Assembly: GCA_964016885.1 (NCBI GenBank)
Contig: OZ024744.1
Span: 44,764,001 to 44,828,000 of the forward strand
Direction of reading: 5' to 3'
DNA length: 64,000 bases
Origin: Eledone cirrhosa
Taxonomy: Eukaryota
Shown here: in pieces, positions 4,033 to 57,366 of the stretch
Layout: each line of letters opens with the position of its first letter
Position numbering within the stretch: position 1 is the first letter of the stretch
Made by a program: the position numbers and the translations under genes
The notes under the pieces: generated by a model
Databases searched by the model: none
What the model saw: the letters and a program-made list of their open reading frames with translations, nothing else
What the model was told of the DNA's origin: nothing

Positions 4033-7000
4033 GCTTTCTTTATTAACCACAAGGGTTTACATAAAGTAGACATTAAGGACAGTACAGGACAATACAGGAC
4101 GGTAAAAATGGGCATTTCTGCGTGTAAAAAATGCTGGGAAGAGAGCACTTCCCTCTCTACCCTGATTTTCCTTTTCAAATGAAATTTGAAAAAGTTAATC
4201 AGGGTATCACCGAAGAGGTAAGTGCTCGTCTTCAGCCCTTTCAAACGTGTCCACCATACTATCTCTTTCGTCATGGCCACTAGACAGATAAAAACTGCCT
4301 GCCCTTCCCGGCTAAAGGGAGAGGGCGGGGCATCCTCACGATGGACTCAGCTGATAGCTGGATCCGTTCTACACGTGACAGCAGGTGTTCGACATAAACC
4401 CACAAGTCAGCAATGCTCGGACACTGGACGAGTGCGTGCAGGACGGTTTCGTCACCCTGCGCGCATCTCGGACATGCCCGGCTGACGGCACCTCCATGCC
4501 TGTAGAGTTTATCCCGAACTGGCATGGCTCCCCGGTAGCACTGCCAGGCCAGGGATTTCTGGAAGTTGTCCATAGGCCCCGGCTAGAAAGTCCTTCCGAA
4601 GAGATTGGCTAGTTGATTTTCGTCGACGCCTAGAGTTTCTCCAAGTACGTCGTCGCTCTTCCTCCCCACTAATCCTCTATAGAACGCCAAGATGGAGTTT
4701 CCACCGATCGCATTGCCCGATTGGTCGAGGCCTGTGAGCGCCTGAAGACATTCCAGTCTCCAAGCGCTCCCTCTCGGTCTTCGCTTGACCCAGGACTGCA
4801 GCTCCGTCAAGGAGACGAGCTGGGGAAAGACGTGTCTAGCAAACGGCAACTACACCTGATACCCGTTGAGGAAGAGGTGGAGATGTCGTAGACTGAGCGC
4901 GTGTCTGCACATCATCAGCCACGGCATGCCCAGCCCTCCACGTAGCGGGTGTTGACAGCAGATGGACCGCCTGACCATCGGAGCACGTCCCTTCCACAAA
5001 AAGCGAAAGAGCAAACGCTCCAGCGCAGTCAGGCGGGGCTTAGGACAGGGTAAGACGGTCAGGCGGTAGTAGATGACGGATGCGATGTACGCGTTGGCCA
5101 CCTCCGCTCGACCTTTCAGGGATAGCTTCCTCTCCGCCCATTTCTGGGTGAGAGAAGCAATCCTGATCGCACCTCGTCCCAGTTTTTGTCCGTCTGGAGG
5201 TTCGGCCCGAAACAGACTCCTAGCAATTTAACCGGTCCGTCCGTCCAGCGCCCGACGACGCTGTTGGACGGCATGGACCTGCCTCTCCAGGTGCCGAGCT
5301 GCAGCCCCACTGACTTTTCCTGGTTGATCATTGCTCCTGCCACCGCTTCGTATTCTCTTAGTGTAGTGCCGATTGCCTCGATGTGTTTGGCGTTCGACAC
5401 CACTACGGTGACATCGTCCGCATATGCTGACACGGATCTTCCGCATCCTAGTTCGCGCGGGACCCCCCTCAACGTCTCCAGTTTGTGCAGTAATGGCCCG
5501 AGAGTCAATACGAACGAGAGGGACGAGAGGGGACATCCTTGGCGGACTGAGCACATCATGTTGAACGGTTCCGAAAGGTGACCGTTCACTCTCACCACAG
5601 AGCAGATGTCGCTGTGCATGGCAGCGATCCAGCCTCTGAAGACGGGCCCTAAGCCTGCCGCCCTCAGGACTGCCGCTAGGTAACGATGGTCGACCCAATC
5701 GAATGCTTTCGACTGATCTAAATTGATCAAGGACCCACCCGTACCAGGTTCCCTAGCTACCCTCTCTACGATGTATCGCATGAGGTGGAGGTTGTCGTGG
5801 GTGGATCTGTCTGGAATGGCGCATGTCTGCGAATCTCCCACCAGATCACCAACGACAAGTGCCAACCTCTTTGCTAGCACCTTGGCCAATATCTTGAACT
5901 CTGTGTTTAGCAGTGTTATGTCCTGAAATTATCTATGTTATCCCCCTTGTTCGAATCCTTTCTCAGCAGCGCCACAGCTCCTGGGCTCACAGAGCTGGGA
6001 ATTCTCCCGTTCTGTTGCCAGTTGCAGTAGACGTCCGCCAAGAGGCCTCCGAACAAGTCTGGCATCTGTACGTAAAGTTCATAGACCATCCAAACCATGC
6101 GATTTACCCCTTGTGCAGCCAGTCATTGCCTTCCGTACTTCAGCGGCTGTTATCGGCTTTTCGCAACCCTCCGCCTCAGTGGCCGAGAGCCGCGGCAGTA
6201 CGTCGAGGTAGACACTAAACTCCATCCCTCGATTCGGCCCGCCGCTGCCCCCGAACAGCTGTGCGAAGTGTCGCTGAAAAGCTTCACACATTTGCCCGGG
6301 ATCGAGTAGCATACGCCCGTCGTGGTCCACCAAAGACCGGATCGTGGCTTTGTTGCCACAACGCGCCTCCGCCACTCGGGCCCATTGAACGGCTTTCGTC
6401 CCCTCGTGTCTGAGAGCACGCACCCTAGCTCTGACAACAGAGCCTTCGTGCTTTGCATTGAAGAATTTATCAAGGGCCAATTTCGCCGCAAGTACGTCGG
6501 TCGCGATGCCTTTGCTAAGCGCCTCGTCTAATTTTCTAACTCGTTCTCCCTCTGCTCTATTTTTCTCTATTGCTAAAGCCTTGCTTAACCTAATGGACTC
6601 TATTCTAATTGCTCTTTTCAGAGCAAACCACCACTTGTTGTTGACGATGGCCCCCGTCAACGCCCGCTTAACTAGTTCGCTAATCCGGTCTCTGTAGGCC
6701 TTGCGCGCTGGTAAGGACGCGTTTAGCTTCCAGTAGCCGGGTCCTCTCTATGAAGCCTATCTAAGTCAAGCACACAGATCACGAATTTGTGGTCTGTGTA
6801 GCTGACTATCTTGAATTGTGGACAGCCTATGCTAGATCTATCTATTTCCCTACAAAATACTGTATCTAGATATGATCTGGATGACCCCATGCGATTGGCA
6901 CATTCGGGAAATCCAATCGCTACCTGTCAGACAGTTCAAAACGCCTGAGCAGGTTGGTGAAGCTTTTGCACCCTCCTCCCCTATGCGCTGATCCCACACC

Positions 7001-9306
7001 GTCCCAGCGTGCATCTAAGATCCCGTTCCATGTCGCCCACTAACACTAAAGAGCGGGACGTTCCAAGAAAAGTCTCCAGACACCGGAAGAAATCAGGCCG
7101 CCCTGCTCCTGTCGGGGCATAGACGGCCACTATCCTGAAAGCTTGCCCGTCTCCGCTGGTCACGTCCAGCACCACCAACTTACCTTCTGGGTCCAGGAAG
7201 ATGGCCCGTATGGCGAGATCCAAACCTCTCCGAAAAAGCACAGCAACTCCCCCCTCCGATCCCGGACGGCTGGGAGATGCGTACACATCGTAGCCGCCGA
7301 AGATCGCTGCGAAGGCCCGTGCTTCGGAGATTCTGGTCTCGCTGATGGCCACTACATCTATGTTTAGTGACCTGAGGTCGTTGAGCAGGTGGCCCTGCTT
7401 CCATGACGACCCCAAGCCACGCGCATTTATGCTGCCTATTCTGAGTGGGGTCATGTTGAAACGGAGCGGAAAAGATGGGAAAGACCACTTACTTTACTTC
7501 TCGTTGAGGAAGGATGATTTGTCCATCCTTTTCACTGCTTGTGGCCTCCTCCGGAAGGATGTCCTTATAAATCCTCCTGAAGAGTGTTTGTCGAAGTGTC
7601 CGATGTGTTTGGGGAATTTTTGTTTTAGTTTCGTGTACGTTTTCTGTGTGATACGAGTGATTTGTATGTGTGGAGGTGGTGTGAACTTTTGGGTTGTTGT
7701 GGGGTCTTTTTCTGTGATGCTGGTGTTATGTTGGATGTAGTGTAATAATTGGTTGTTCAAATTTAATGCTGTGTAGTGTGTAACGTTTTGGTTTTGTTTT
7801 GTTTGCGTTTGTTTCTGTTTAGTCTTTTGGTGACTTTTGTGGTGTTGGTGATGGTGGTGTTGGGGTTAATGATGGTGATGGTGTTGGTGTTTGTGGTGAT
7901 GGGGTTGGTGATGCTGGTGTGGATGGTGGCATATCTGTCCTAACTTTTTTCTTTGATATTTTATTTGTTTCCCTCTGTATTTTGTTTTTGGAGGGGGAGG
8001 GAAGTGAATTTTTTCCTTTTTGGTTTCTTATTTTCTTTTTTCCTGATACCGTTTCCCACTCCTCGTCGTCACCATCTGTCTCCAGTTGTGATAGGCCGGG
8101 AATGGAAAATCCTCCACAGGCGTTAGTTTTGGTTGTGGCGTGGTGGATGGTGTAGGCGCTGGTGCTAGTTCTGATGCGTTGGGTGGTGGTGGTGTTGGTT
8201 TTGCTACTGTTGCTGGGGTTGTTGCTGTTATAGTTGCTTCTGTTGTTGCTGCTACAGTTGTTGCTGCCATCTCTGCTCCTGGTGGTGTTGATGGTTGAGT
8301 CACTGGGGTGGGTAGGAGAGGTGGCCTCAACCTTTTAGCCTGAGGGCAGAAAGCCCTTAGGTGGGTTCCTTCACCACAAACGACACACCTAGGCCTTCTG
8401 CCCTCGACGATTACGGTGAGGTGGCTGCCGTCAGTGAGGTCTATTACCTCTGGGATCTCCTCAATGCTTTTTTGGTCCGCTTGGATCAGGAGCTCCATCC
8501 CAGATCTGGACCAGTTCTCCTGCTTTTCTTTCGCTATTTCGATTATCTTGGTGTTAGCTTCGAAGCCGGCGAGGACGGCATCTATTAGCTAGGGAATTTC
8601 GATGGCCGTTGGAACGTGGGTCAGCCTGATCTTCACGAGTCTCTGGCCACAATAGTTTGGGACGTGTGTGAAGTCGTCACTTCTTAATGGGGCCATGGAG
8701 TTTTCTCTAGCCTCCTGTGGGGTTTCAAAGAACACGTCCACGGTTCCATATTTCTGCCCACGTCTGATGTGGGTTTTTTTGCCCACACATGTCCCAAAGC
8801 TTTTTGGATTTGGGACTCGGATGCCCGTTCCACTCGGCGCGACTTTATGCTAATCGTCCGATAAGACACGGTGCATAGGCGCCGATGCTCCATTTTATTA
8901 GGTGGGGTGGGGTGAGGCTGGCCCTCTACCCATCTTTCTTTACCATTTTTGGGGGTTTCTTATAATTCCTCCTGAGTTACCTGGAATGCTTCGCACTGTG
9001 TTACTACTCTGGCAAACTCAGGGTGGTTTTCTTAATTTATTTGTTGCTGTTATCGTTATTTTTGTTATTGTTAATTTTTGTTTCAGTTGTGGTGGTGGTG
9101 GCGTCAGTGGTGTTCGGTGTGGAAGAGTTAATTTTGGTTGAATTCATTTCGATATCACGAGTTAATTTATCTTTTTCTTTTGTTTCTGTTGTCGCTGTGG
9201 TGGTGGTGGGGGTGGCGGCTTTAACACCTGCAGTCATTGGTAATGGCGGGAAATGAATGTCTGCCTGAGACAAATTTAAAATGTTGCTACTGCTTATATT
9301 TTTAGT
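4033..9306 (-). mobile_element. Tx1/L1-type LINE copy E1 (family A), decayed, 5' end lost
   Basis: Family A 3'UTR with AATAAA. Frameshifted ORF2 from ATG 7454 (SINARGL..ISETR; LDQSKAF; QGCPLS; YADD; CPRC..H...C). ORF1 remnants with CVVCGEGTHLRAFC. Fused to E2 at about 9303-9306. Confidence 0.93.
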
Positions 9307-12300
9307 AGTAGAATACGGACGCGATGTTCGCATTCGCCACCTCCGCGCGACCTTTCAGTGATAGCTTCCTCCCAGCCCATTTTTGGGTGAGACTGGCTAC
9401 TCTGCTCGTTACCTCGTCCCAATTCTTTTCCACCTGGAGGTCTGGTCCGAACCAAACCCCGAGCAACTTTACCGGTCCGTCCGTCCAGCGCCCCACGACG
9501 CTGTTGGACGGCATAGGCTTGCCTCTCCAGGTTTCGAGCTGCAAGCCCACCGACTTTTCCGGGTTAAATTTGGCTCCTGTCAACCTTTCATATTCCTTCA
9601 ATAAGGTGCCGACCACCTCGATTTCTGAGGTGTTCGACACCATCACGGTGATGTCCGCATAAGCCGACACCGCCTTTCCACGTCCCGGTTCGAGCGGGAT
9701 GCCCTGCAACACTTCCGCAGTAAAGGCTCGAGAGTCAATACGTACAGAAGAGAATAGAGAGGGAACCCTTGACGGACCGATCGGGAGTGCCGAAATGGTT
9801 CCGAGAGGTGGCCATTAACCTTGACCACCGAACGTGTTCCGCTGTGCATTGCAGCGATCCAGCTTCTGAAGACAGGGCCGAAGCCAGCTGCTCTGAGGAC
9901 AAACTCCAGATACCGATGGTCGACCGTATCGAATGCTTTCGATTGATCTAAATTGATCAGTGCCCCCACTGAAGCCAGGTTTACACCCTACCCTCTCTAT
10001 GATGTAGCGCATGAGGTGGAGATTGTCGTGTATGGACCTGGCTGGGATTGCGCAAGTTTGCGCCTCCCCAACCAAATCCTCGATGACAAGCGCCAATCTC
10101 TTTGCAAACACCTTGGCCAAAATCTTAAACTCTGTGGTGAGCAGAGTTATGGGCCTGAAGTTGTCTAATGTATCCCTCTTGTTCTCGTCTTTCCTTATAG
10201 CGTCACCACTCCCCTGCTCACAGAACTGAGAATACTCCCATTCTGCTGCCAGTTGCAGTAGAGTGCTTCGAGGAGATTGGAGAACAAGTCTGTCATATTT
10301 ACGTAAAGCTCGTAGGGCAGACCATCCAAACCGGGTGACTTGCGCCTCATGCAGCCGACAAGGGCGTCCTGAATTTCGGCTGAACTAATCAGCCTTTCGC
10401 AGCCCTCAGCGTCGACCGTCGAGATGCGCGGCAAGCCGTCAAGGTAGGGACTGAAATCCGCTACTCTCTCTGACTCACCGCTCTCCCCGAACAACCGAGC
10501 AAAGTGCTGGCAAAAGGCCTCACACATCCGCTTGGAATCGCTTATCTCGTGTCCGTCTCGGTTCGCCAAAGACCGAATTGTTGTTTTATTACCACGCTGC
10601 GCTTCCGCCACGCGGGCCCATCGAACAGCTTTGGTTCCCTCGTTTCTCAGCACACGCGCCTTAGCTCTGACAATGCAACCTTCGTGTTTTGCATTGAAGA
10701 GATGGTATAATGCCATTCTCGCCACTAGCACGTCAGTTGCAATGCCACTACAATTAGCCTCGTCTAACTTATCTATCAGCTCACCCTTCTTTCTATATTT
10801 CTCTAACGCTAGTTCTTTGCTGAACTCTATCGAAGTTACTCTAATCTCTCTTTTGAGAGCCCCCCCCACCACCACCACCACCATCTGTTGTTGATGATCC
10901 CCCCTGTCAACTTTTGCTTAACTAAATTGTTGACTCGGTCCCTGTAAGCCTTACGTGCCGGAAATGACATGTTCAGCTTCCAGTAACCAGGTCCTAACCT
11001 ACACGTTTTATCTAGGTCGACCGTACAGATCACAAATTTGTGATCTGAATAAACGACCGTTTTAAAAAGTGGGCAGCCCACACTATTTCTATCTATTTTC
11101 CTAATGAAGATCCTGTCTATATACGATCTAGATGACCCTATGCGGTTGGTTCATGTCCATAATGGCACATTGGGGAAATCTAGTCGATACCTGTCAGACA
11201 TTTGGAACTGGCTGAGTAGGTGCTTGAGGCTTTTGAACCCCCCGCTCCTATCGGCTACTCCCACACAATCACAGCGTGCGTCTAATATTCCATTCCAGTC
11301 CCCTGCTAACAGTAAAGGGCGAGACGTACCCAGAAAGGTCTTCAGGCGCCTAAAGAAGTCCGTCGTCCGGCCCCTGTAGGAGCGTAGACGACCAGCAGTC
11401 TAAAGGCACCACCTTCGCTACTGCTGACATCCAAGACCACCAACTTACTGTCCAGGTCCCGGAAGATCGACCTTACCTCGAGATCCAATCCTTTCCTAAA
11501 CAGAACTGCCCCCCCCCCCCCCCCATTCCCGGTCTGCTAACAGATGCGAAGATCTGATAGTCGTCGAAAATGTCGGCTAGTGCGCGCGTGTCGGAAATTC
11601 TGGTCTCGCTGACGACAATCACATCCATTTCAAGCGACCTGAGGTCTTTGAGCAGGCGACCCTGCTTCCAGGGTGACACCAGGCCGCGAACATTTAAGCT
11701 TCCTACTCTTAATATGGCCATGTTGGTAAGCTAAGAGAGAGAGGGAAGGTTTACTTACCTCCCGGAGTCTTGTGAAGGTCGGGTGATTCTACCTCCATGG
11801 TTGGTGGGGTTTCTTTTGGGAACCCATTTAAAAGTCTCGATGTGGGTTTCACATTCGGGGTTCCCACGTCTTAAGGAAAGCTCTCTCGAATTTCTTTGAA
11901 GGAATTGACTGACATTCCGACCAGAAGCAAATCTTCTGGCACGCAAAATGTGCTCATTTCAAAAATCTCCCCCTCTGTTTGAATGTCCTCGTTCGTGCTA
12001 AGAGGGCCATCAGTTTATTGTTGGCCCTTCTGACAAGCACGAAGTTTTTAACATTTCGTTGGTGTGGTTTTATTTGTTTTCGTTTTGGTGACTGGTGGTG
12101 ATGGTTTTGGTGGTGTTGTTTCAGGTATGTCTGTGTTTGTTGTAGGTGTGGTGTCTGCAATTTCAGGTATTTGTGTGTTTATTTGTACTTGTGTTTGTTT
12201 AGGTTGTTTGCGTTTCGGGGATTGTGGGGGTGGTGTCGATGTTGCTGTTGGTGCTGATGTTATTGGGGAAGTGTTTGCGTTAGTGGTGTCTGTATTTTTT

Positions 12301-13959
12301 GTTGTGTATGTTTTTGTTTTGTTGGGGTTTTTTTGTGAGTTTTCTCTGTTTTTTTTGCACTTTTGGGTTTTCCTTCATCTTCGCTGCTGGAAGACAAAGG
12401 GTCTGTGGCTGTGAATGTCTCTGTGTCTGTGTGTGCGTTTATTGTTTTGTCTATGTGTATAATTGGGGGGTTAGGGGGAGTGGGAGAGCTTTCCTCGTTT
12501 TCCCCTTGGATTGGTTTTGGTGTTGGTGGTGATCCAGCTGTTTTTGATGTTGGTGTCCGTGTCTTTGTTGGTGTTGTTTTTGGTGGTGGTGGTGGTGCAG
12601 CTTTCCGTGCTGACACTGGCGTTGGGAACAAAGGAGGTTTGCGAGCCCCTGCATTTTTGCACTGAGGGCAGAAGGCTTGCAGATGTGTTGCTTCCCATCA
12701 GACGAAGCAGCGTGGCCTTCTTCCATCAATGATTAGTTGGATTGTTGTCCCGTCCTGCAGGCGGGAAAAATCCGGGATGTTGTTCATGTCCTCCGGTTTC
12801 ATTTGGAGAAGAATCTCCAAATCCATTCCGGACCAGTCCTCTCTCTCTGTCCTTTTCATATCCAGGAGGGTAGTGTCTGTCCCCTCCTCGATTACGCATC
12901 CCGGCAGCCACCATATGTTCATTCCTGGTGGGATGCTGGGAATGCGGACCTTTACTGTCCTTTTACCCATGTAGGACGGATGCATGATAATGCGTTCCGT
13001 TCTGCAGGGGGTCACCGAGTGCTTAATAACGAGGGCCTCGGTTTTGAACAGTACCGAGATGGTACCGAACTGTTTGCCTCTTGCTTTATACTCTATGTCA
13101 CTTCCGATGTACTCCAAAGCAGCCTCGACCTCTGCTTGGCTGGCAAGTTCCACTTTTCGTATCTGCACCGAAATGCAGCGAAAGTACACCGTCCTCCTTT
13201 GCATGGCCGCTATTGCCCCGTCCGGGATGGTCAGGTTTGCCCAGGACTTCTCCCGTTTAATTAGCCTCCACGCTTGTGCCAACTGTTCGTCTTTATCGCT
13301 AATATCAACATCAATATTCAATAAGCGCTTTGTTTTTGCTGCTGCTGCAGCAAATGTGGTGCTTCTGATGCTCTTGTTGTTGGTGTTGTCATTCTTGCTG
13401 TTGTTATTGTTGTTGTTGTTGTTGTTTTGTTTGTTGATGCTGTTGCCACCGCCATCCGTGTTTACATTGAAGCTGTCGGTGTTATTGTCGTTATTGCTCT
13501 GAGTTGTTGTTGTTGTTGTGGTGGTGGTGGCGGCGGTGGTGGCGATGGCGTCGGTGGTGGTGGTGATGTCGTTCTCAGATGATACTGCTGCTATCACAGA
13601 AGGTTGAGTTTTGCCTTCACATTCAGTAGAGTGGATGACAGGCATTACTGTAGCCGTCGTAGTCGTGGTGAAATCTACAGTGGCTGCCTTTAAACTTTTG
13701 ACCTGAACGTTGTTTACCGTTTCAAGGTCGAAAAGCGTTTCAAGGTGGGGAAGCGATTTTTTTCGAAGTTTTTTAAAAATAAATCTGAATATTCGGGCTT
13801 AAAGCCCGAATATTGAGAGGTATCCCTCTCTTTAAATCAAGATGTGTACCTTAAGTTTCGGTAGCGACAAGAAAATAAAAAAAAATGGCACTTTAAAACA
13901 GCTTAAATTACGAACCTTTTCCCCCGCAGATTTGTACTGTCTTCACATATGTGCGTCCC

Positions 13960-13960
<1 letters not shown>
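9303..13960 (-). mobile_element. Tx1/L1-type LINE copy E2 (family C-like), 3' part deleted
   Basis: ORF2 fragments 9302-11721 (MAILRVGSLNVRGL; SDHKFV; LDQSKAF). ORF1 fragments about 11751-13750 (WANLTIP..RRTVYFRCIS..GRRPRCFV). The 5' end abuts (AAT)n at 13961. Confidence 0.92.

Positions 13961-14040
<80 letters not shown>
13961..14040. repeat. (AAT)n target tract between the E2 5' end and the Dong D1 5' end
   Basis: Nearly pure AAT at a head-to-head junction. Confidence 0.97.
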
Positions 14041-14042
<2 letters not shown>

Positions 14043-14755
14043 TACGTGACTGATAGTAAGGAGCCAATGCTCAGAACTGTACTGAAGGAGAGGACAATAG
14101 ACCAGGGGATGTCCAAGGAGGAAATAACAACAAGGAGAAGGAGCAGCCTTCAGGAAAAATCCCTTCATAGTACCTTCTTTGAGAAAACTGAATTCAGAGA
14201 TACACAGACATGGAACTGGTTGAAAAGAGGAGACCTTAAAACGGCTACAGAAGGAATGTTAATGACTGCGCAAGAGCAGGCCTTCAAAACGAAGTGGTTG
14301 AAACACCATATTTACAAGGAGGAGGCTAGCCCACTGTGCAGGATCTGTGGAGAGAGAGAGAGGAGACTGTGGCTCACATTGTATCCGAGTGAAAAAAGAT
14401 CGTGCCTGATTGTGGATGTGGCCTGCCCATTCGACACGAGAGTGCAAGAGAAGGAGAGGGAGAAAATTAACCGATACCAGGACTTAAAGTGGGAGGTAAA
14501 AAGGATTTGGAACTGCCATGAAGTCAAAGTGGTCTCGATTGTCATAGGCACACTAGGTACTATCTCAAAAAGTTTCCAGAGATGGATAAAGAAAATTGGC
14601 CCCGCCCCGCTTTTTGGAACACTTCAAAAGGCATGATTGCTGGGAACAGCAAGAACTCTCCGATACGTCCTGAATATCTGAGGCTGCAGGTAGTGGCTTG
14701 ATATCCATTTCAACAAACTTTCCAGTTAACTAACATCAATGAGTGAGACTCAAAG
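14041..14755 (+). mobile_element. Dong/R4-type element D1, 5'-truncated 3' fragment
   Basis: Matches the C-terminus of ORF 59132-62524 (SKEPMLR..TEGMLMTAQEQA..CRICGE..IVDVACPFD..EKINRY) and its 3'UTR. Internal deletion of about 230 bp at about 14391. Ends in AAT repeats. Confidence 0.93.
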
Positions 14756-14799
14756 AATAATAATAATTATTACTTTAAGAAAACGCACATGGTGGATAT

Positions 14800-17700: not shown

Positions 17701-18819
17701 CTGAGATGGAATGTTGCTGAACAAAAAGAAATGGATAGGAAGACTAGGAAGCTATTGACTATCTACAACATGTTCCACAAGAGGAGTGATGTCGATAGAC
17801 TCTACTTAAGGAGATCTGAAGGTGGAAGAGGTCTTATCAGCATAGAGGACTGTGTTCAGATGGAGAAAAACAACCTACATGACCGATAGTAAGGGGCGAA
17901 AGCTCAGAATTGTACTGAAGGAGAGGACAATAGACCAGGGATGTCCAAGGAGGAAATAACAACAAGGAGGAAGGGCAACCTTCATGAAAATCCCTTCATA
18001 GTACCTGCTTTGAGAAAACGGAATTCAGAGATCCACAGACATGGAACTGGTTGAGAAGAGGAGACCTTAAAAAGGCTACAGAAGGAATGCTAATGGCTGC
18101 GCAAGAGCAGGCCCTCAAAACGAAGTGACTGAAACACCATATTTACAAGGAGGAGGCTAGCCCACTGTGCAGGATCTGTGGAGAGAGAGAGAGAGAGGAG
18201 ACTGTGGCTCACATTGTATCCGAGTGTAAACACCTAGCCCAGACCAACTATATAGGCTGGAGACATGATGTAATGGGCAGGGTGATCCAATGGCACCTAT
18301 GCAAAGTAAAAATTTACCACATTCTGAGAAGTGGTATGAGCATAAGCCAGAGTCGGTGATAGAAAACGATCAGGTGAAGGTGCTGTGGGATTTTAGGATA
18401 CAGACGGACAAGAAACTAGAACACAATATACCTGACATGGTGGTTTTGGACAAGGAAAAAAGATCGTGTCTGATTGCAGATGTAGCCTACCCACTCGACA
18501 CGAGAGTGCAAGAGAAGGAGAGGGAGAAAATTTACCGATACCAGGACTTAAAGTGGGAGGTAAAAAGTATTTGGAACTGCCCTGAAGTCAAAGTGGTCCC
18601 GATCGTCATAGGCGCACTAGTTACTATCTGAAAGAGTTTCCAAGGATGGTTAAATAAAATTAGTCCAGCCCCGCTTTTTGGAACACTTCAAAAGGCATGC
18701 TTGCTGGGAACAGCAAGAACCCTCCGATACGTCCTGAATATCTGAGGCTTCAGGTAGTGGCTTGATATTCATTCCAACAAACTTTCCAGTTAAATAACAT
18801 CAATGACTGAGACACAAAG
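14800..18819 (+). mobile_element. Dong/R4-type element D2, near full-length and defective
   Basis: 5'UTR homologous to 57430-59130 (AATCGCTC.CGTAAGT; CACCATCACTACAGTA; AAGTCAGACATTC). ORF remnants about 15632-18744 with stops and frameshifts. The 3'UTR ends in (AAT)n at 18820-18837. Confidence 0.93.
15835..17889 (+). pseudogene. Dong D2 ORF remnant (684 aa) lacking the RT catalytic core
   Basis: Colinear with the D3 ORF but missing 89 aa that include QGDSLSPLLF and FMDD. Frameshifted before the zinc finger and RLE. Confidence 0.9.
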
Positions 18820-18837
18820 AACAATAATAATAATAAT

Positions 18838-36048: not shown

Positions 36049-36069
36049 AATAATAATAATAATATTAAT

Positions 36070-36373: not shown

Positions 36374-36429
<56 letters not shown>

Positions 36430-40096: not shown

Positions 40097-40131
40097 GTTT
40101 AAAATAGAGTGGAAAAGATGGGAAAGACCAC

Positions 40132-42231: not shown

Positions 42232-42471
42232 GTTTTTTTGTTTAAAATGAAATTTTGGGTACAAAACCCCAATAACTGGTTATTTAACCCCGAAGGGCCA
42301 AATAACGGACAGAAAGACCCCTCTCACGAGGAGGAGGGTGTCTTTATCAACAATTTGGTTCAAGTTTTAAACAATTTACAATTGTTTTAACGGTTAAAAA
42401 TTACTATACCTTACAGAGCCGAGCCTCCGTCAACCATGGCATTCAATAATAATAATAATAATAATAATAAT

Positions 42472-45453: not shown

Positions 45454-45506
<53 letters not shown>

Positions 45507-45760
45507 GGTCTAATGATTACTTATCGCAATTCCCAGGAAACCCGCGTATAGGAGAAATACAAAAGATAGTACTAATGGGAACTGCCCATATACTAAGGAA
45601 GATTAGGTCAATATAAGTACATCACAAGTCTAAACACTAAATATGCATGTGTGAGTATGTATGTTCTTTCTTGAACATGGCGGACCTTGTTGTCTCTTGA
45701 GGTCACTAGTTGTGACTTGGTGATAACTCGTATGAACATAAGGCAAGATAAAAGCAACTG
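45507..45760 (+). mobile_element. 3' fragment of a second Dong/R4-type family (D4)
   Basis: Translates SNDYLSQFPGNPRIGEIQKIVLMGTAHILRKIRSI* (stop at 45614-45616), homologous to the D3 end LQKACLLGTARTLRYVLNI*. It has a different 3'UTR and (AAT)n on both sides. Confidence 0.82.
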
Positions 45761-45778: not shown

Positions 45779-48700
45779 AATTTATTAACCACAAGGGTTT
45801 ACATAAAGTAGACATTAAGGACAGTACAGGACAATACAGGACGGTACAAATGGGCATTTCTGCGTGTAAAAAACAGAGGAGATAATAAAATAACAAAGAA
45901 AAATGCCCCAATAGGGGGGAGACTTCCGAGGGACATTTGTGGAGAAAGCCCATTAAAAGACCACAGTGACCCTGACCACCAGGGCAAGTGCCCTCTCCCA
46001 GTTTTCCACCTTTAATTTACAGACACATACTCAGAGAAGGCCCATTAATTCGGGCCATACTTGATTCTCTCACCCATCTTTCAACAAAATGCTGGGAAGA
46101 GAGCACTTCCTTCTCTACCCTGATTTTCCTTTTTAAATGAAATTTGAAAAAGTTAATCAGGGCATCACCGAAGAGGTAAGTGCTCGTCTTCAGCCCTTTC
46201 AAAAGTGTCCACCATACTCTCTCTTTCGCCATGGCCACCAGACAGATAAAAACTGCCTGCCCTTCCCAGGTAAAGGAAGAGGGCGGGGCAATCCTCACGA
46301 TGGACTCAGCTGATAGCTGGATCCGTCCTACACGTGACAGCAGGTGTTCGACATAAACCCACAAGTCAGCAATGCTCGGACACTGGACGAGTGCGTGCAG
46401 GACGGTTTCGTCGCCCAGCGCGCATCTCGGACATGCCCGGCTAACGGCACCTCCATGCCTGTAGAGTTTATCCCGAACTGGCAAAGCTCCTCGGTAGCAC
46501 TGCCAGGCCAGGGATTTCTGGAAGTTGTCCATAGGCCTCGGCCCGAAAGTCCTTCCGAAGAGATTGGCTAGTTGGTTTTTCATCGACGCCTAGAGTTTCT
46601 CCAAGTACGTCGTCGCTCTTCCCCTCCACTAATCCCTATAGAACGCCAAGGTGGAGTTTCCGCCGATCACATTGCCCGATTGGTCGAGGGCTGTGAGCGC
46701 CTGAAGACATTCCAGTCTGCGAAGCGCTCCCTCTCGGTCTTTGCTTGACACAGGACTGCAGCTCCGTCAAGGAGACGAGCTGGGGAAAGACGTGTCTAGC
46801 AAACGGCGACCACACCTGATACCCTTCGAGGAAGAGGTGGAGATGTCGTAGCCTGAGCGCGTGTCTGCTCAACATCAGCCACGGCATGCCCAGCCCTCCA
46901 CGTAGCGGGTGTTGACAGCAGATGGACCTCCTGATCATCGGAGCGCGTCCTTTCCACAAAAAAAGCGAAAGAGCAAACGCTCCAGCGCAGTCAGGCGGGG
47001 CTTAGGACAAGGCACGACGGTCAGGCGGTAGTAGATGACGGATGCGATGTACGCGTTAGCCACCTCCGCTCGACCTTTCAGGGATAGCTTCCTCTCCGCC
47101 CATTTCTGGGTGAGAGAAGTCATCCTGCTAGTCACCTCGTCCCAGTTTTTGTCCGTCTGGAGGTCCGGACCGAACCAGACCCCTAGCAATTTAACAGGTC
47201 CGTCCGTCCAGCGCCCGACGACGCTGTTGGACGGCATGGACCTGCCTCTCCAGGTGCCGAGCTGCTGGCCCACTGACTTTTCCTGGTTGATCATTGCTCC
47301 TGTCACCGCTTCTTATTCTCTAAGTGTAGTGCCGATCGCCTCGATGTGTTTGGCGTTCGACAACACTACGGTGACATCGTCCGCATATGCTGACACGGAT
47401 CTTCCGCACCCTAGTTCGCGCGGGATCCCCCTCAACGTCTCCAGTTTGTGCAGTAATGGCTCGAGAGTCAACACGTACAAGAGGGACGAGAGGGGACATC
47501 CTTGGCGGACCAAGCGCATGATGTTGAACAGTTCCGAAAGGTGACCGTTCACTCTAACCACAGAGCAGATGTCGCTGTGCATGGCAGCGATCCAGCCTCT
47601 GAAGACGGGCCCAAAGCCAGCCACCCTCAGGACTGCCGCCAGGTAACGATGGTCGACCCTATCGAATGCTTTCGACTGATCTAAATTGATCAAGGACCCA
47701 CCCGTGCCAGGTTCCCTAGCTACCCTCTCTACGATGTATCGCATGAGGTGGAGGTTGTCGTTTTGATCTGTCGGGAATGGCGCATGTCTGCGCCTCTCCC
47801 ACCAGACCACCAACGACAAGCGCCAACCTCTTTGCTAGCACCTTGGCCAAAATTTTGAAGTCTGTGTTTAGCAGAGTTATGGGCCTGAAATTATCTATAT
47901 TATCCCCCTTGTTCGGATCCTTTCTCAGCAGCGCCACAGATCCTCGGCTCACAGAGCTGGGAATTCTCCCGTTCTGTTGCCAGTTGCAGTAGTCGTCGCC
48001 AAGAGGCCTCCGAACAAGTCTGGCATTTTTACGTAAAGTTCATAGGGCAGACCACCCAAACCAGGCGGTTTACACCTTGTGCAGCCAGTCATTGCCTCCC
48101 GTAATTCAGCGGCTGTTATCGGCTTTTCGCAACACTCCACCTCAGTGGCCGAGAGCCGCGGCAGTCCGTCGAGGTAGACACTAAAGTCCATCCCTCGATC
48201 CGGCCCGCCGCTGCCCCCGAACAGCTGTGCGAACTGTCGCTGAAAAGCTTCACTCATTTTCCCGGGATCGAGTAGCATGCGTCCGTCGTGGTCCACCAAA
48301 GACCGGATCGTGGCTTTGTTGCCACGACGCGCCTCCGCCAGTCGGGCCCATTGAACGCCTTTCGTCCCCTCGTGTCTGAGAGCACGCATCCTAGCTCTGA
48401 CAACGCAGCCTTCGTGCTTTGCATTGAAGAATTGGTCAAGGGCCAATTTCGCCGCAAGTACGTCGGTCGCGATGCCTTTGCTAAGCGCCTCGTCTAATTT
48501 TCTAACTAATCTGCTCTATTTTTTTCTATTGCTAAAGCCTTACTAAACCTAATGGATTCTATTCTAATCGCTCTTTTAAGAGCAAACCACCACTTGTTGT
48601 TGACGATGGCCCCCGTCAACGCCCGCTTAACTAGTTCGCTAATCCGGTCTCTGTAGGCCTTGTGCGCTGGTAAGGACGCGTTTAGCTTCCAGTAGCCGGG

Positions 48701-51592
48701 TCCTCGTCTATGAAGCCTATCTAAGTCAAGCACACAGATCACGAATTTGTGTTCCGTGTAGCTGACTATCTTGAATTGTGGACAGCCTATGCTAGACCTA
48801 TCTATTTCCCTACAAATTACTCTATCTAGATATGATCTGGCTGACCCTATGCGATTTGTCCAAGTCCACATTGGCACATTTGGGAAATCCAATCGGTACC
48901 TGTTAGACAGTTCAAAACGCCTGGCAGGTTGGTGAGACTCTTGCACCCTCCTCCCCTATCCACTAATCCCACACAGTCCCAGCGTGCATCTAAGATCCCG
49001 TTTCAGTCGCCCATTAACACTAAAGAGCGGGACGTTCCAAGAAAGGTCTCCAGACGCCGTAAGAAATAAGGCCGCCCTGCTCCTGTCAGGGCATAAACGG
49101 CCACTCCCTGAAAGCTTGCCCGACTTCGCTGGTCACGTCCAGCACCACCAACTTACCTTCTGGGTCCAGGAAGATGGCCCGTATGGCAAGATCAAAACCT
49201 CTCCGAAAAAGCACATCAACTCCTCCCCCCTATCCCGGACGGCTGGGAGATCCGTACACATCGTAGCCGCCGAAGATCGGTGCGAAGGCCTGTGCTTCGG
49301 AGATTCTGGTCTCGCTGATGGCCACTACATCTATGTTTAGTGACCTGAGGTCGTTGAGCAGGTGGCCTTGCTTCCCTGACGATTCCAAGCCACTCGCATT
49401 TATGCTGCCTATTCTGAGTGAGGTCATGTTGAAATGGAGTGGAAAAGATGGAAAAGACCACTTACCTTACTTCTCGTAGAGGAAGTACGGTTTCTCCATC
49501 CTTTTCACTGCTTGTGGCCTCCTCAGGAAGGATGTCCTTATAAATCCTCATGGAGAGTGCTTGTCGGAAGTCTCCGATGTCTTTGGGGAATTTTTGTTTT
49601 AGTGTCGTGTACGTTTTCTGTGTGATGCGAGTGATTTGTATGTGTGGAGGTGGTGTGAATGTTTGGGTTGTTGTGTAGTCTTTTTCTGTGATGCTGGTGT
49701 TGTGTTGGATGTAGTGTAATAATTGGTTGGTCTTCAAATTTAATGCTGTGTAGTGTGTGTCGTTTTGGTTGTTTTGTTTTGTTTGCGTTTGTTGTGGGTT
49801 TGTTTCTGTTTCGCATTTTGGTGAATTCTGTGGTGCAGGTGATGGTGGTGATGGGGTTAATGATGGTGATGGTGTTGGTGTTTGGGGTGATGGGCTTGGT
49901 GATGCTGGTGTGGATGTGGTATGTCTGTCCTAACCTTTTTGTTTGATAGTTTATTTGTTTCCCTCTGTATTTTGTTTTTGGAGGGGGAAGGAAGAGAATT
50001 TTTTCTTATTTGGTCTCTTATTTTCTTTTTTCCTGATACCGTTTCCCACTCCTCGTCGTCACAATCTGTCTCCAGTTGTGATAGGCCGGGGAGTGGAAAA
50101 TCCTCCACAGGCGTTAGTTTTGGTTGTGGCGTGTTGGATGGTGTAGGCGCTGGTGCTAGTTCTGAAGCGTTGGGTGGTGGTGGTGGTGTTGGTTTTGCTA
50201 CTGTTGCTGGGGTTGTTGCTGTTATAGTTGCTTCTGTTGTTGCTGCTACAGTTGTTGCTGCCATCTCTGCTGCTGGTGGTGTTGATGGTTGAGTCACTGG
50301 CGTGGGTAGGAGAGGTGGCCTCAACCTTTTAGCCTGAGGGCAGAAAGCCCTTAGGTGGGTTCCTTCACCACAAACGACACACCTAGGCCTTCTGCCCTCG
50401 ACGAATACGGTGAGGTGGCTGCCGTCAGTGAGGTCTATTTCCTCTGGGATCACCTCAATGCTTTTTTGGTCCGTTTGGATCAGGAGCTCCATCCCAGGTC
50501 TAGACCAGTTCTCTTGCTTTTCTTTCGCTGTTGCTATAATCTTGGTGTTGGCTTCGATGCTGGCGAGGACGGCAGTTATTAGCCAGGGAATTTCGATAGC
50601 CGGTGGAACGTGGGTCACCCTGATCTTTACGATTCTCTGGCCACAATAGCTTGGGACGAGTGTGAATTCGTCACTTCTTAATGGGGCCATGGAGTGTTCT
50701 CTAGCCTCCTCTGGTGTTTCAAAGAACACGTCCACGGTTCCATATTTCTGCCCACGTCTGATGTGGGATTTTCTTGCCCACGCATGTCCCAAAGATTTTT
50801 GGCTTTGGGACTCGGATGCCCGTTCCACTCGGCGCGATTTTACATTAATTGTTCGATAAGACACGGTGCATAGGCGCCGATGGTCCATTTTATTAGGTGG
50901 GGGGTGAGGCTGACCCTGTACCAATCTTTCTTTACCATCTTTTTGGCATCTTCTAATTCCTCCTGAGTTACCTGAAATGCTTCGCACTGTTTTGCTACTC
51001 TGGCAAAACTCAGGGTGGTTTTCTTAATGTCATTGTTGCTGTTGTTGTTATCGTTATTTTTGTTATTATTAATTTTAGTTTCAGTTGTGGTGGTGGTGGT
51101 GGCGTCAGTGGTGTTCGGTGTGGAAGAGTTCATTTTGATTGAATTCATTTCGACATCACGAGTTTATTTTTATTTTGTTTCTGTTGTCGCGGTGGTGGTA
51201 ATAGTGGCGGCTTTTACACCTGCAGTCATTGGTAATGGCGGGGAATGAATGTCTGCCTGAGACAAATTTAAAATATTGCTACTGCTTAAATTTTTAGTGT
51301 TGGCAAACGTAGTAATATTTACAAGTGTGAGGTGTTAGTTTGTGAGGAAGGCTCTCAGCTGTTTGGTGCAGAGGTGAATCAGCCATGATTTTTTCAAAGA
51401 AATTTTTTGATAATCATAAAAGTTTAAATTTTGGGCAAAAGGCCCCAATCTTTTTGGGTGTCCTTTTCGGAAAACAATGTATGTGCACTTACATATAGTT
51501 AACAATAAAAAATTTCCATAAACGGCAATTTTTCAAACGGAAACAACAAACCTTGCGGAGCTCACGATGATACGATTTAGTACGTAGGTCGC

Positions 51593-51593: not shown

Positions 51594-51656
<63 letters not shown>

Positions 51657-51658
<2 letters not shown>

Positions 51659-54600
51659 TATCATTTATTAGCCACATGGGCCGACATACAGGGAACAATA
51701 CAAAAGACTGGGACAGTGGGGTATTACAGAAAAATAGAGTAAACAATATTAATCACAATAACAAAGAAACAAGAAAATTACACCAAGAAAAAATTCCCCA
51801 ATAGGGGGGATGACCACCCAGGGTTCGCTCAGGTATCCCACCAATCCTGAACGACACAACGCTTCGGGAGCACCCTGGAAGGGCACCCCCTCTCCTCCTC
51901 AAATTTACCTACCTACAGCCGCATGACAAGAGTAGGCCCACTCACACGGGCCATTCTCGCCACATTCACCCACATTTCAGCAAATGTACTGGGGGCAGCA
52001 CTTCTCTCTCCACAGTCACCTTTCTTTCCAAGTGAAACTTGAAAAAGTTGATGGCCGAAGAGAAAAGTGTCTGTCTTCACATCTTTCAACCTCGTCCACC
52101 ATACAACCTCTTTCGCTACTGCCACCAGACAGAGGAAAGTTGCCTGCCCTTCCTGGCCAAAAGAAGGCGGCGGGTCGATCTTCACTATGGACTTGGCCGA
52201 TAGACGGGCAGGTCCGTCTGACAGCACTTGCGTGCATGTAGAGTTTATCTCGAACCGGCAGTGCCCCCCGGTAACACTGCCAATCGAGGGATTTTTGGAA
52301 ATTATCCATCGTCTTCAGCTCGAAAGTCCTCCGGTAAAGACTGGTTAGTTCGACTTCGTTGATTCCCAGAGCCTCTCCGAGTGCGTCGTCGCACTTGCCC
52401 ACCACTAATCCTCTATAGAACTCGAGAGTGGAAGTTCCACTGACCGCATTGCCCGCCTGGTAGAGGGCAGTGAGTGCCTGGCAACATTCCAGATGCCATT
52501 CACCCAGTCTCGGTCTCTTCTTGACCCAGGACTGCAACTCAGTCAAAGAAACGAGCTGCGGAAAGGCCCATCTGACAAAGGGCGACCACACCTGTTCACC
52601 GTTTAGGCAGAATATCTGGAGATGCCGCAGCCTCAGCAAGTGCCTGCGCATCATTAGCCACGGCATGCCCAGCCCTCCACGTAGAGGGTGCTGGCAGCAG
52701 ATGGACCGCCTCACCAGCGGAACCTGACGCCTCCACAAGAATTTGAAGAGGAGCCGCTCCAAGATGGCGAGGCGCGTACGGGGCAAGGGACGACGGTCAG
52801 ACGGTAGTAGTTCGCCACCTCAGCCCGACCTTTCAGTGATAGCTTCATCCCAGCCCATTTCTGGGTGAGACTGGCTACCCTGCTCGTCACCTCATCCCAA
52901 GTCTTATCCACCTGGAGGTCTGGCCCGAACCAAACCCCTAGAAACTTTACCGGTCCGTCCGTCCAGCGCCTAACGACGCTGTTGGACGGCATGGACTTGC
53001 CTCTCCAGGTCCCGAGTTGCAAGACTACTGACTTTTCCGGGTTAAGTTTTGCTCCCGTCAACCTTTCATATTCCTCCAATAAGTTGCCGACCACCTCGAT
53101 TTCTGAGGTGTCCGACACCATCACAGTAATATCGTCTGCATAAGCCGAGACAGCCTTTCCGCGTCCCGGTTCGAGCGGGATGCCCTGCAACAGCTCCAGC
53201 TTCCCCAGTAAAGGCTCGAGAGTACAGAAGGGAGGAGAGAGGGCACCCTTGACGGACCGATCGGGAGACCTGAAACGGTTCCGAGAGGAGGAAATTAATT
53301 TTGACCACCGAGCAGGTGCCGCTGTGCATTGCAGCGATCCAGCTTCTGAAGACGGGGCCGAAGCCAGCCGCCTTGAGGACAGCCTCCAGGTACCGATGGT
53401 CGACCCTATCGAATGCTTTCGATTGATCTAAATTGATCAGAGCCCAACCGAAGCCAGGTTTACACCCTACCTTCTCTATGATGTATCGCATCAGGTGGAG
53501 GTTGTCGTGTATTAACATGGTTGGGATTGCGCAAGTTTGCGCCTCCCCAACCAAATTCCCGACGACAAGCGCCAACCTCTTCGCTAACACCCTGGCCAAA
53601 ATCTTAAACTCTGTGTTAAGCAGAGTTATGGGCCTGAAATTGTCTAATGTGTCCCTCTTGTTCTCGTCTTTCCTTATCAGCGTCACTACGCCCCGGCTCA
53701 CAGAACTGGGAGTACTCCCGTTTTGTTGCCAATTGCAGTAGAGGGCTTCGAGGAGGTTGGAGAACAAGTCTGGCATATTTACGTAAAACTCGTAGGGCAG
53801 ACCATCCAAACCGGGTGACTTGCGCCTCATGCAGCCGACAAGGGCATTCTGAATCTCGGCTGAAGTGATTGGCCTTTCGCAGCGCCCAGCGACAGCCGTC
53901 GAGAGTAGCGGCAAGCCATCGAGGTAGGGACTGAAGTCCGCCACCATCTCTGACCCGCCACTTCCCCCGAACATGCGAGCAAAATGTTGGCGAAAGGCTT
54001 ATCACATCCGCTTGGAATCGCTCAGCTCGTGTCCGTCTCGGTCCGTCAAAGACCGAATCGTGGTTTTATTACCAAGCTGCGCCACTTCCATGCGGGCCCA
54101 TCGAACAGCTTTGGTTCCCTCGTTTCTCAGAGCACGCGCCTTAGCTCTGACAATGCAACCTTCGTGTTTCGCATTTAAGAAATGGTATAATGCCATTCTC
54201 GCCGCTAGCACGTCAGTTGCAATGCCACTACCAGTAGCCTCGTCTAACTTATATACCAACTGCCCCTCCTTTCTATTTTTCTCTAACGCTACTTCTTTGC
54301 TAAACTCTATCGACATTACTCTAATCTCTCTTTTGAGAGCCCCCTCACCCCCCACCATCTATTGTTGACGTCTCCCGCTGTCAACTTTTCCTTAACTAAA
54401 TTGTTGACCTGGTCCCTGTAAGCCTTACGTACCGGAAATGACATGTTTAGCTTCCAGTAACCAGGTCCTAACCTACGCGTCTTATATAGATCGACCATAC
54501 AGATCACCAACTTGTGACCTGAATAGGCGACCGTTTCAAAACGTGGACAGCTTACACTATTTCTGTCTATTTTCCTAATGAATATCCTGTCTATATACGA

Positions 54601-57366
54601 TCTAGATGACCCTATGCGGTTAGCCCAGGTCCACACTGGCGCATTAGGGAAATCTAGTCGGTACCTGTCAGGCAGTTGGAACTGGCTGATTAGGTTCTTG
54701 AGGGATTTGCACCCCACGCTCCTATGGATACTCCCACACAGTCTCTGCGTGCGTCTAAGATGCCGTTCCAGTCCCCGCTAACAGTAAAGGGCGAGACGTG
54801 CCCAGAAAGGCTTCCAGGCGTCTAAAGAGGTCCGGCCGTCCTGCCGCAGTAGGAGCATCGACGGCCACCAGTCTAAAGGCACCACCTTCGTTATTGTTCA
54901 CGGCCAGGACCACCAACTTCCCGTCCGGGTCCCAGAAGATCGAACTTACCTCGAGATCCAGGCCTTTCCTCAACACTGCCACCCCGCCTCCCATTCCCGG
55001 CCGGCTAACAGACGCAAAGATCTGATAGTCGTCGAAAATGGGGTGTAGTGCGCTCATGTCGGAAATCCTGGTCTCGCTGACGGCAATTACATCCATTTCT
55101 AGAGACCTGAGGTCATTGAGCAGGTGACCCTGCTTCCAGGACGATCCCAGGCCTCGAACATTTAAACATCCTACTCTTAATACGGCCATGTTGGCAGGTT
55201 AAAAAGAGAAAGAGGAAAGGTTTACTTACCTTCCGGGCTCTTGTGAAGGTCGGGTTGTTCGACCTCCCTAGTTCGTGGGGTTTCTTTTGGGAACCCCTTT
55301 AAAGGTCTTGAAGTTGGTTTTACGTTTGGGGTTCCCACGTCCCGAGGAAAGCTGTTTCGTATTTCTTTGTATAATTCGATCGACATTCGCACCAGAACCA
55401 AATCTTCCGGCACGCGAAATGTGCTCGATTTATAAATTTCCCCCTCTTTTTGTATATTTTCACTTCGTGCTACGAGGGCCATCAGTTCCTTGTTGGCCCT
55501 CCTGACGATCACGAAGTTTTGTATATTTTGTTGGTGTGATTTTATTTGTTTGCGTGGCTGTGGTGGTGATAGTTTTGGTGGTGTTGTTTCGGTTGTGTCT
55601 GTGTTTGTTGTGAGTGCGGTGTCTGTGGTTTCAGATGCTTGTCTGTATATTTGTTCTAGCGTCTGTTTAGAGGTTGTTTGTGTTTGGGGGATTCTGGTGA
55701 TGGTGATGGTGGTGATGATGTTGGTGTTATTGGAGAGATGTTTGCGTGGGTGGTATCTGCGTTTTTTATTGTGGGTGATTTTGTGCTTTGTTGAGTTATT
55801 TTTTTCTTTTTGTGTTTCCTTTTTTTGTATTTTGGGGGATTTGGGTTTTCCCTCATCTTCACTACTGGTAGATGAGGGGTCTGTGTCTGTAAGTGTGTCT
55901 GTATGTATGTTTATGGTTTTATTGGTGTGTGTATTTTGGGGGGGAGGGGGAATGTGACAGCTTTCCTCGTTTCCCTCTTGGGTGGTCAATGTTGGTGGTG
56001 GTCTTTCTATTGTTGTTGTTGTTGGTTGTGGTCCTCGCCCCGGCATCGGCTGCAGTGGAGCCTTTCGACCCCTTGCCTCTTTCAACAGTTGAGGGCAGAA
56101 GGCTCGCAAATGGGTTTTTTCCCCACAAACAAAACACTGCGGCCTTTTGCCTTCGGTCATAATGTGAATGGCCGTCCCATTCTGAAGGCGGATGTGGTCT
56201 GGGATTGTCTTCACATTCTCGGGCCTGATCTGGGGAAGTATATCCAGGTCAACCCCGGACCAGTCCTTTCTGGCCGTTCTTGTCACTTGTATAGGGACTG
56301 TATCCGTCCCCTCCACAATCACACATCCAAGAAGCCATCACATGTCAAGTCCTGGTGGGATTCTGGGAATGCGGAGACGGGCCGTTCTTTTTCCCATGTG
56401 GGAGGGGTACATTATGACCTTGCTGGTTTTGCAAGGAGTCATAGCGTGTTTCATAGCGAGGGCTTCTGACTTGAACAACACTGAAATGGTGCCGTACTGT
56501 CTGCCCCTCTCTATGTATTCGGTGTCTTCTCTGATGCACCTCAGCGCGACTTCGACATCTTCTTGTGGGATTAAAGCTGCCCTTTTGGTTTGTGCTGAGA
56601 TGCATCTATAATGCACCGTTCTGCGCCCCACTGCCTCAATAGCTTCTACCGGGACAGTTAAGTTTGCCCATGTTTGCTCTTGCTTGATGAGCTTCCATGC
56701 CTGGTCCAACTTTTCATCTTTGTTTGAGAGGTCCATGTTGAAGCATGGCCTCTTTTTTGCTGCTGCCGCAGCGAAAGTGTTCTTCTTGTTTTCGTTGGGG
56801 GGTGTGGTTGGTGTTGTTCTTGTTGGTGTTGTTGTTAGCACTGTCGCTGTTATCATTGTTGTCTTTGTTGCCACCGTTGTTCTCGGTGCAGTTGGTATTG
56901 TTGCTGTTGGTGTTGTCGCTATTTGTTTTCATGTTAGTGGTGTTGATATTGTTGTTACATTTGTTATCTTTTTTTTTTGTTATCTGTATTCTCGTTGTCG
57001 CTGTTACTGTCATTTTTTTCAAAATTAGAGTTCTTATTGGTATCATTGGTGTCTTTGTTTACCTTGTTTGAGGTGGTGTTTGTGCTATCAATGTGTGTTA
57101 ATTTCGCTGTAGCGCTCCTCTCAACTTCTACGTCGTTGTCGCACGACAGCCGACATATCGCTGGGGACGTGGCTCAGCCATGTTTTTTTTCTCCGTAAAT
57201 TTTTTAACATGTAAAAAAGTTCAAATATTTGGGCCAAAAGACCTTTCACAGGGCAAAGTCTAAGGGTTTATATCCCTTAAACAACAAGAAATATTTAACA
57301 ACAAATAATTTTAACAGGCAAATAAAGCGACTTACTGGGACTGAGAAAAATACGTCCGATTAGACC
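51657..57366 (-). mobile_element. Tx1-type copy E11 (family C), full-length and frameshifted
   Basis: Family C 3'UTR. ORF2 fragments 51913-55189 (MAVLRVGCLNVRGL; YADD). ORF1 fragments 55222-57181 (CFVCGEKTHLRAFC). The 5' end abuts (AAT)n at 57367-57426. Confidence 0.94.

Follow-up and report, generated by a model that had tools for sequence, protein, structure and literature searches.

The window analysed here is a 64,000-nucleotide stretch of the genome (3.0 Gb) of the octopod Eledone cirrhosa (GCA_964016885.1), at positions 44,764,001-44,828,000 of contig OZ024744.1 (C28; 136.5 Mb). Between positions 4033 and 57366 it carries eleven minus-strand copies, E1 to E11, of long interspersed elements (LINEs) that encode an apurinic/apyrimidinic endonuclease (APE) and a reverse transcriptase (RT), and which self-comparison and translated search divide into three lineages, A, B and C. 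Four plus-strand pieces of Dong/R4-like elements with a single open reading frame (ORF) and one short interspersed element (SINE) are also present, and (ATT)n joins them all. The minus-strand LINEs almost certainly target ATT repeats: the (ATT)n at their ends is target DNA, not merely a tail. The features of the window are as follows.

4033-9305, minus strand: E1, lineage A LINE, fused to E2 by a deletion that removed its 5' end; an internal deletion lies close to the 3' end
9306-13959, minus strand: E2, lineage B LINE; ATT at the 5' end, 3' part deleted
13960-14041, no strand: (AAT)n tract flanked by the 5' ends of E2 and D1
14042-14755, plus strand: D1, Dong/R4-like, 5'-truncated
14771-18816, plus strand: D2, Dong/R4-like, with internal deletions; tail-to-tail with E3 over AAT at 18817-18837
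18838-21597, minus strand: E3, lineage C LINE, fused to E4 by a deletion that removed its 5' end
21598-26030, minus strand: E4, lineage A LINE; ATT at the 5' end
26052-26213, minus strand: tRNA-type SINE with a terminal ATT; similar to the LINE 3' end over its last ~30 bases
26214-30455, minus strand: E5, lineage C LINE; SINE at the 3' end, ATT at the 5' end
30471-36048, minus strand: E6, lineage B LINE; ATT at both ends
36064-36372, minus strand: E7, lineage C, a 5'-truncated copy of 309 bp; ATT at both ends
36428-42444, minus strand: E8, lineage A LINE, young and full-length; missing from a duplicate locus
42472-45453, minus strand: E9, lineage A LINE with a large internal deletion; ATT at both ends
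45454-45506, no strand: (AAT)n tract flanked by the 5' ends of E9 and Dx
45507-45760, plus strand: Dx, a 5'-truncated copy (254 bp) of a second Dong/R4-like family
45779-51592, minus strand: E10, lineage A LINE, full span, frameshifted
51656-57366, minus strand: E11, lineage B LINE, full span, frameshifted
57367-57426, no strand: (AAT)20 tract flanked by the 5' ends of E11 and D3; (AAT)18 without D3 at the duplicate locus
57427-62600, plus strand: D3, Dong/R4-like, with an open frame of 1,141 codons (59099-62521)

Copies are 87-95% alike within lineage A (E1, E4, E8, E9, E10), 83-85% within B (E2, E6, E11) and 84-93% within C (E3, E5, E7), and 71-85% alike across lineages. Together, the Tx1-type and Dong-like elements account for 57,961 of the 58,568 bases from 4033 to 62600. 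As an initial annotation of the sequence had proposed, the eleven same-strand Tx1-type copies fall into at least three divergent families, and (ATT)n touches every preserved 5' end (9/9) and every preserved 3' end except that of E5, which abuts the SINE (8/9). The contact is loose only at the 3' end of E1, where one ATT is followed by GTT repeats and the pure tract lies ~30 bases beyond. The tracts at 13960-14041, 45454-45506 and 57367-57426 each lie between two 5' ends, as that annotation also claimed, the partner on the opposite strand being Dong/R4-like in every case.

E8 encodes an ORF1 of 699 amino acids, starting at 42231, with one CCHC knuckle (CX2CX4HX4C, by inspection), and an ORF2 of 1,139 amino acids (40096-36677) that matches the Pfam families Exo_endo_phos (APE), RVT_1 (RT) and zf-RVT. 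This is the Tx1/L1-group layout of two ORFs, the second with an N-terminal APE, an RT and a C-terminal zinc motif; a CCHC zinc knuckle is carried by the ORF1 of the Tx1 clade. Pfam searches of ORF1 gave one weak match, for E9 ORF1 (E 0.24). Among solved structures, the closest relative of the minus-strand ORF2 is human L1 ORF2 (E 2e-52), R2 being found at 1e-21. In a FastTree phylogeny of 45 sequences, none of them a named Tx1, E8 grouped with an Argonauta protein (1.0) and with an unnamed clade (1.0); fish and sea-cucumber proteins bearing no clade name were nearby. The nearest named proteins come from Argonauta hians (RT region, 74%) and, as a short piece, from Octopus sinensis. Judged by architecture, the minus-strand LINEs probably belong to Tx1 rather than to another L1-group lineage. 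They are recently mobile: in a sample biased toward the youngest copies, 36/38 retained both long frames (at least 1,139 and 699 codons). The element is present in the DNA of three organisms (four contig sets examined).

Beyond the window, copies occur on many contigs. Exact-pattern counts over the whole genome placed TTATTATT, in one register, before 2,282 of 2,382 E8-type 5' ends (96%), and (ATT)3 after 4,408 of 5,344 lineage-A 3' ends (82%). E9/E10-type 5' ends are also preceded by TTATTATT (2,026 occurrences, a number without a fraction because its companion pattern is not nested). As background, 690 of 398,800 positions (0.17%) in 20 arbitrary 10-kb stretches have a pure ATT run of 9 nt before them. 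All 30 sampled loci had ATT-flanked 5' ends, and a pure ATT run of at least 15 nt, most commonly 18 nt, stood at 100 of 107 full-length 5' ends. In the published account by Kojima (PMC4494074), a family is regarded as site-specific when one sequence type occupies more than 20% of its flanks; here the corresponding values are 96% for 5' ends and 82% for 3' ends. The 3' junction contained a single ATT before a non-A base in 73 copies and two ATT in 184. Since some 3' ends carry a single ATT, there is no fixed tail, and the 3' "tail" is largely target DNA.

Full-length 5' ends could carry ATT of their own, and truncated copies are therefore the real test. Four 3'-end queries returned 120 loci, 51 of which ended within ~1.7 kb; 19 of these short copies were classed by hand as internal deletions and three were dropped (the window copy, its duplicate and another duplicate), leaving 29. 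ATT or an exact flank duplication was found at the break in 17/29 truncated copies (10/11 in lineage A, 7/18 in the older B and C) and at 0/19 deletion junctions; counting deletions too, the fraction is 17/48. Control copies from the RTE-like family at the window's end had ATT or AAT in 0/19 short copies (Fisher p=2e-5 for the excess in truncated copies). The flanks of truncated copies, the duplications and the empty sites described below agree that (ATT)n is target DNA, as the initial annotation had held; its opposing case, dispersed copies with random 5' flanks, is not what the genome-wide and truncated-copy counts gave.

The form of the junctions depends on whether a copy is complete. Both ends were traced in 164 copies, a set enriched for 3' flanks departing from pure ATT; the 83 with pure flanks were uninformative. 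Where flanks were imperfect, 11/16 truncated copies with an ATT-like break carried an exact copy, 9-19 bp long, of the first bases of the 3' flank (11/37 if 21 more without ATT at the break, which are probably later deletions, are counted). A duplication of 9-20 bp was found in 0/44 full-length copies: 32 had none and 12, at four loci, had one of 24-54 bp (p=1e-8 for the asymmetry with 11/16, 7e-5 with 11/37). ATT always comes first in the duplicated targets. At boundaries between ATT and (CTT)n, 11 full-length copies had one ATT downstream and pure ATT upstream, and CTT was never copied. Compound ATT/CTT tracts are often entered at this boundary, and 12 of the first 30 one-ATT 3' ends (L311-L340) continue directly into long (CTT)n.

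Empty sites are provided by an inverted duplicate of the window region (C28:43.58-43.63 Mb, L411-L417), which is ~65 kb long and 97-98.6% alike, has deletions and insertions of its own, and lacks both E8 and D3. In the window, 27 nt of repeat separate E9 from E8 and ~55 nt separate E8 from E7, where the duplicate has only 27 nt between E9 and E7; beside E11, the window has 60 nt of repeat and then D3, and the duplicate 54 nt with D3 missing. E8 differs from unlinked copies by 8-12 substitutions and is therefore apparently far younger than the duplication, which argues for insertion into an existing spacer and not for loss at the duplicate. That each insertion leaves target on both sides, as previously suggested, agrees with this empty site, an array spacer entered with repeat on either side.

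The plus-strand elements have a single ORF with RT, CCHC and a PD..D-type (restriction-like) nuclease motif (by inspection, D3), and their best solved relatives are R2 proteins (E 1e-30); by sequence, they are R2-group elements of the Dong/R4-like kind. Short copies of the Dx family, which served as the positive control for the truncation test, had AAT, never ATT, at the 5' break in 10/14 cases (8/12 without the window copy and its duplicate), and TAA stood at the 3' end in 30/30 copies. Dong, DongAg and DongBg of the R4 clade are reported to target TAA microsatellites (PMC3812793, PMC3774820), the repeat also used by the window's Tx1-type LINEs. The minus-strand LINEs differ from these Dong-type elements, which the plus-strand elements resemble, in their two ORFs, their APE nuclease and their use of the other strand; the Dong/R4-like elements would use the ATT repeat on the opposite strand. 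Both Dong-R4 and L1-Tx1 are given as recently active in Octopus vulgaris, with no target stated in the available part of that account (PMC13282606).

We propose that the minus-strand LINEs insert into ATT repeats in fixed orientation by means of an APE nick and leader pairing, which as a whole is a likely explanation of the data. The APE endonuclease would likely nick the AAT strand, and reverse transcription would be primed at an RNA end without a fixed tail, either the last base of the element or a few read-through AUU. A full-length RNA, to judge from the DNA junctions, would start in upstream (AUU)n; its cDNA would then end in (AAT)k copied from this leader and could pair with an uninterrupted ATT run in the target, leaving no duplication if the run lies upstream of the nick and duplications of 24-54 bp if it lies downstream. 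A truncated cDNA, lacking the leader, would instead join through a staggered top-strand nick with, in most cases, 0-4 bases of microhomology. These separate routes for full-length and truncated copies form a reasonably likely account of the junctions. ATT left on either side of each insertion would keep old insertions available as targets, allowing arrays to form, some of which unequal exchange may later amplify.

A similar contrast is reported for R1 elements of the melanogaster type, in which all truncated insertions have duplications and the precise junctions of full-length copies are credited to upstream target sequence proposed to be carried in their transcripts (PMC2718515). The asymmetry found here is R1-like, with duplications in 11/16 truncated copies and none of that size in 44 full-length ones. 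The same source describes tandem R1 arrays in Drosophila 28S rDNA, which arise when new copies enter regenerated target; R1 belongs to its own clade, however, and uses a single rDNA site with a fixed 14-bp duplication or 9-bp deletion (PMC2718515), whereas the elements described here use a dispersed microsatellite with 9-19-bp duplications and, on full-length copies, occasional ones of 24-54 bp. For R2, cleavage of elements upstream in 28S RNA is described (PMC3774820).

Several observations weigh against the proposed mechanism. The (AUU)n leader is deduced from DNA junctions alone, and the data fit endonuclease specificity and nick selection by RNA-primer pairing alike. ATT is missing from the 5' break in 12/29 truncated copies, probably in most cases through later deletion, a class assigned by hand, and in 21/37 truncated copies with imperfect flanks. 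Even with ATT at the break, 5/16 truncated copies show no duplication, E7 among them. Several duplicated targets hold two ATT units only (L349, L352, L354, L072), and the recognition word may therefore be short rather than a long microsatellite. At the duplicate locus, other tract lengths also drift, which makes the size of the repeat gain at E8 uncertain, a single noisy case. Finally, one array on C1, described below, shares nine array-private alleles in a patchwork.

The strongest competing explanation accepts the targeting and assigns it mainly to RNA-DNA pairing: a relaxed endonuclease would nick at many T/A steps, and only nicks whose primer pairs with read-through AUU at the 3' end of the RNA would be used. 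Duplicated targets that begin with ATT, some of just two units, fit this idea. So does the AATAAA found 6-7 bases ahead of the 3' end in all three lineages, which, at the standard spacing of polyadenylation, would put cleavage inside the downstream AUU. Yet the single ATT at the 3' junction of 73 copies leaves little to pair, and endonuclease specificity is presented as the main determinant in known families (PMC4494074). We therefore regard pairing as the main determinant as possible, though clearly the less likely choice.

Insertion builds the arrays of these elements, and unequal exchange accounts for part of the growth. The 71-95% likeness of the window copies indicates that they inserted separately over time. 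Independent insertion is also indicated for the tandem neighbors at C2:72.81 Mb and for one copy at C2:188.06 Mb, which are nearer to unlinked copies than to one another; among the remaining three copies there (C2:188.05-188.07 Mb), differences amount to 0-2 bases, which makes them indistinguishable from products of duplication. At C1:441.10-441.14 Mb (L391-L397), at least seven full-length tandem copies with mosaic haplotypes repeat one interrupted spacer of 36-51 nt, and the patchwork of private alleles indicates that these identical spacers arose partly by recombination. Seven independent insertions at this C1 array were considered and set aside, as its copies mix two or more source haplotypes (both alleles occur elsewhere at 39 of 71 variable columns) and show local exchange.

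Whether arrays are selected or are hot-spot structures, either telomere-like or built by seeking the ends of earlier elements, beyond the use of any ATT tract, was weighed using the neighbors of 67 full-length copies. Upstream stood a Tx1-type 3' end in 21 cases, a Dong-like element in 14, a SINE in 7 and other sequence in 25; downstream the numbers were 25 Tx1-type, 18 Dong-like, 4 SINE and 20 other. Next to 16 arbitrary ATT tracts, a Tx1-type neighbor was found upstream in one and downstream in four. A hot spot would suit the upstream proportions (21/67 vs 1/16), the near-complete occupation of 4033-62600 by two element types, and a strict polarity in which Tx1-type neighbors were co-oriented in all but one case and Dong-like neighbors opposite in 32/32. 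The enrichment is nevertheless not significant (upstream p=0.057; downstream, 25/67 vs 4/16, p=0.40), with tandem copies having entered the counts repeatedly; a Tx1-type copy already adjoins 5/16 arbitrary ATT tracts, and the locus is interstitial, at 44.8 of 136.5 Mb. A special array structure is thus unlikely, and the window array stands at the dense extreme of a pattern found across the genome. That ATT at both ends is element-borne, with random insertion and arrays made by recombination or assembly error, is largely refuted and highly improbable: a uniform register at full-length 5' ends would fit an element-borne leader and recombination is evident in one array, but truncated copies broken at varied points are flanked by ATT and exactly duplicate imperfect flank sequence, the tract is already present at the empty site, the RTE control gave 0/19, and window copies 71-95% alike are not duplicates.

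In TRAS and SART, a single repeat, (TTAGG)n, receives two kinds of element with opposite polarity, HeT-A and TART are telomeric, and such elements form head-to-tail arrays. The initial annotation saw in the window a self-feeding array of this sort. What stands is that insertions into spacers leave target on both sides, as at the E8 empty site, and that the opposite polarity of Tx1-type and Dong-like elements is TRAS/SART-like; the array itself is not special, the excess of Tx1-type neighbors is not significant and some arrays carry signs of unequal exchange. The likeness to HeT-A is unsupported: HeT-A and TART sit at chromosome ends, whereas the window is interstitial, copies lie on many contigs, the nucleases of the two partners are not related, and nothing points to a function at telomeres.

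Among L1/Tx1-group APE-type LINEs, microsatellite specificity is reported for Kibi on (TC)n and Koshi on (TTC)n (PMC4494074) and for crocodilian Tx1 families on (TTCC)n or (TTTC)n (PMC4494074, PMC3812793). The elements described here share that type of specificity and differ in their (ATT)n target, their octopod host and a clade placement made without named references. A (TC)n or (TTC)n target does not apply, (CTT)n occurring only downstream of ATT in a minority of copies. No Tx1 family specific for ATT or TAA was found in the accessible portions of the literature consulted, which include PMC4640811, PMC3747384, PMC13282606, PMC11203168, PMC9115989 and PMC13586686 and do not cover Repbase; that this specificity of Tx1-type LINEs is already catalogued is conceivable but rather doubtful. 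ATT would be a new target for a known kind of site-selective element, the Tx1-type LINEs; the TAA target of Dong is known already.

With these elements, (ATT)n joins the short list of targets of APE-type site-specific retrotransposons, and two unrelated nucleases converge on opposite strands of a single repeat. Thousands of young copies with imperfect flanks form a natural experiment on how LINE 5' junctions are made, a debated step for which the contrast between full-length and truncated copies previously rested on R1 and one rDNA site, and the intact copies open the question of nuclease versus RNA to direct testing. The findings may also bear on the frequent contact of ATT tracts with these elements in the genome (5/16 arbitrary tracts). 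We speculate, as an improbable extension, that this is an undescribed active octopod LINE lineage that reads its site through the microsatellite at both RNA ends, regenerates and lengthens the target with each jump, drives an abundant SINE, is together with Dong a main generator of the ATT microsatellites in octopus genomes, and has relatives that switch repeat by their RNA ends. If true, a lineage that switches repeat in this way would be a naturally reprogrammable APE retrotransposon.

Other features of the elements concern their 5' regions. E8 is ~95% alike to E9 and E10 in ORF2 and the 3' untranslated region (UTR), but differs from them in the 5' UTR and in ORF1 proteins that are ~50% alike (40135-42444 compared with 43300-45453 and 49500-51592), suggesting that a 5' module was exchanged; the E8 and E9/E10 5' types each number more than 2,000 ends in the genome. 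A GGCCC..AAAT(A)TT-like motif, possibly a host promoter element, lies ~40-60 bases upstream of the first ATG in the 5' UTRs of E4, E6, E9, E10 and E11, and similar words occur in the UTRs of D2 and D3. In Rfam searches of the 5' end for a ribozyme that could make the leader, nothing reached the gathering score or E<=1, an HDV-like descriptor search of 5' ends was uninformative (26/30 shuffles also matched), and single-strand folds of six 5' ends showed no common structure, only E5 reaching z=-2.6.

The tRNA-type SINE (26052-26213; L006, L010, L014, L016, L028, L020, L118) ends in ATT, is co-oriented with the LINEs and often has an ATT tract at its 5' end; it is likely mobilized by the minus-strand LINE lineage. 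Just upstream of the window (C28:44,754,001-44,764,000, L418) lies a second mixed cluster, in which Dong-like pieces and one Tx1-type copy sit on AAT tracts. The 5' UTR of D3 contains a 627-bp tandem duplication (98.6%, 57553-58829). At the end of the window, the RTE-like LINE (62812-64000, minus strand) has (TG)n at its end, and many truncated relatives show TA or TATG repeats at the 5' break; this family has a separate microsatellite preference.

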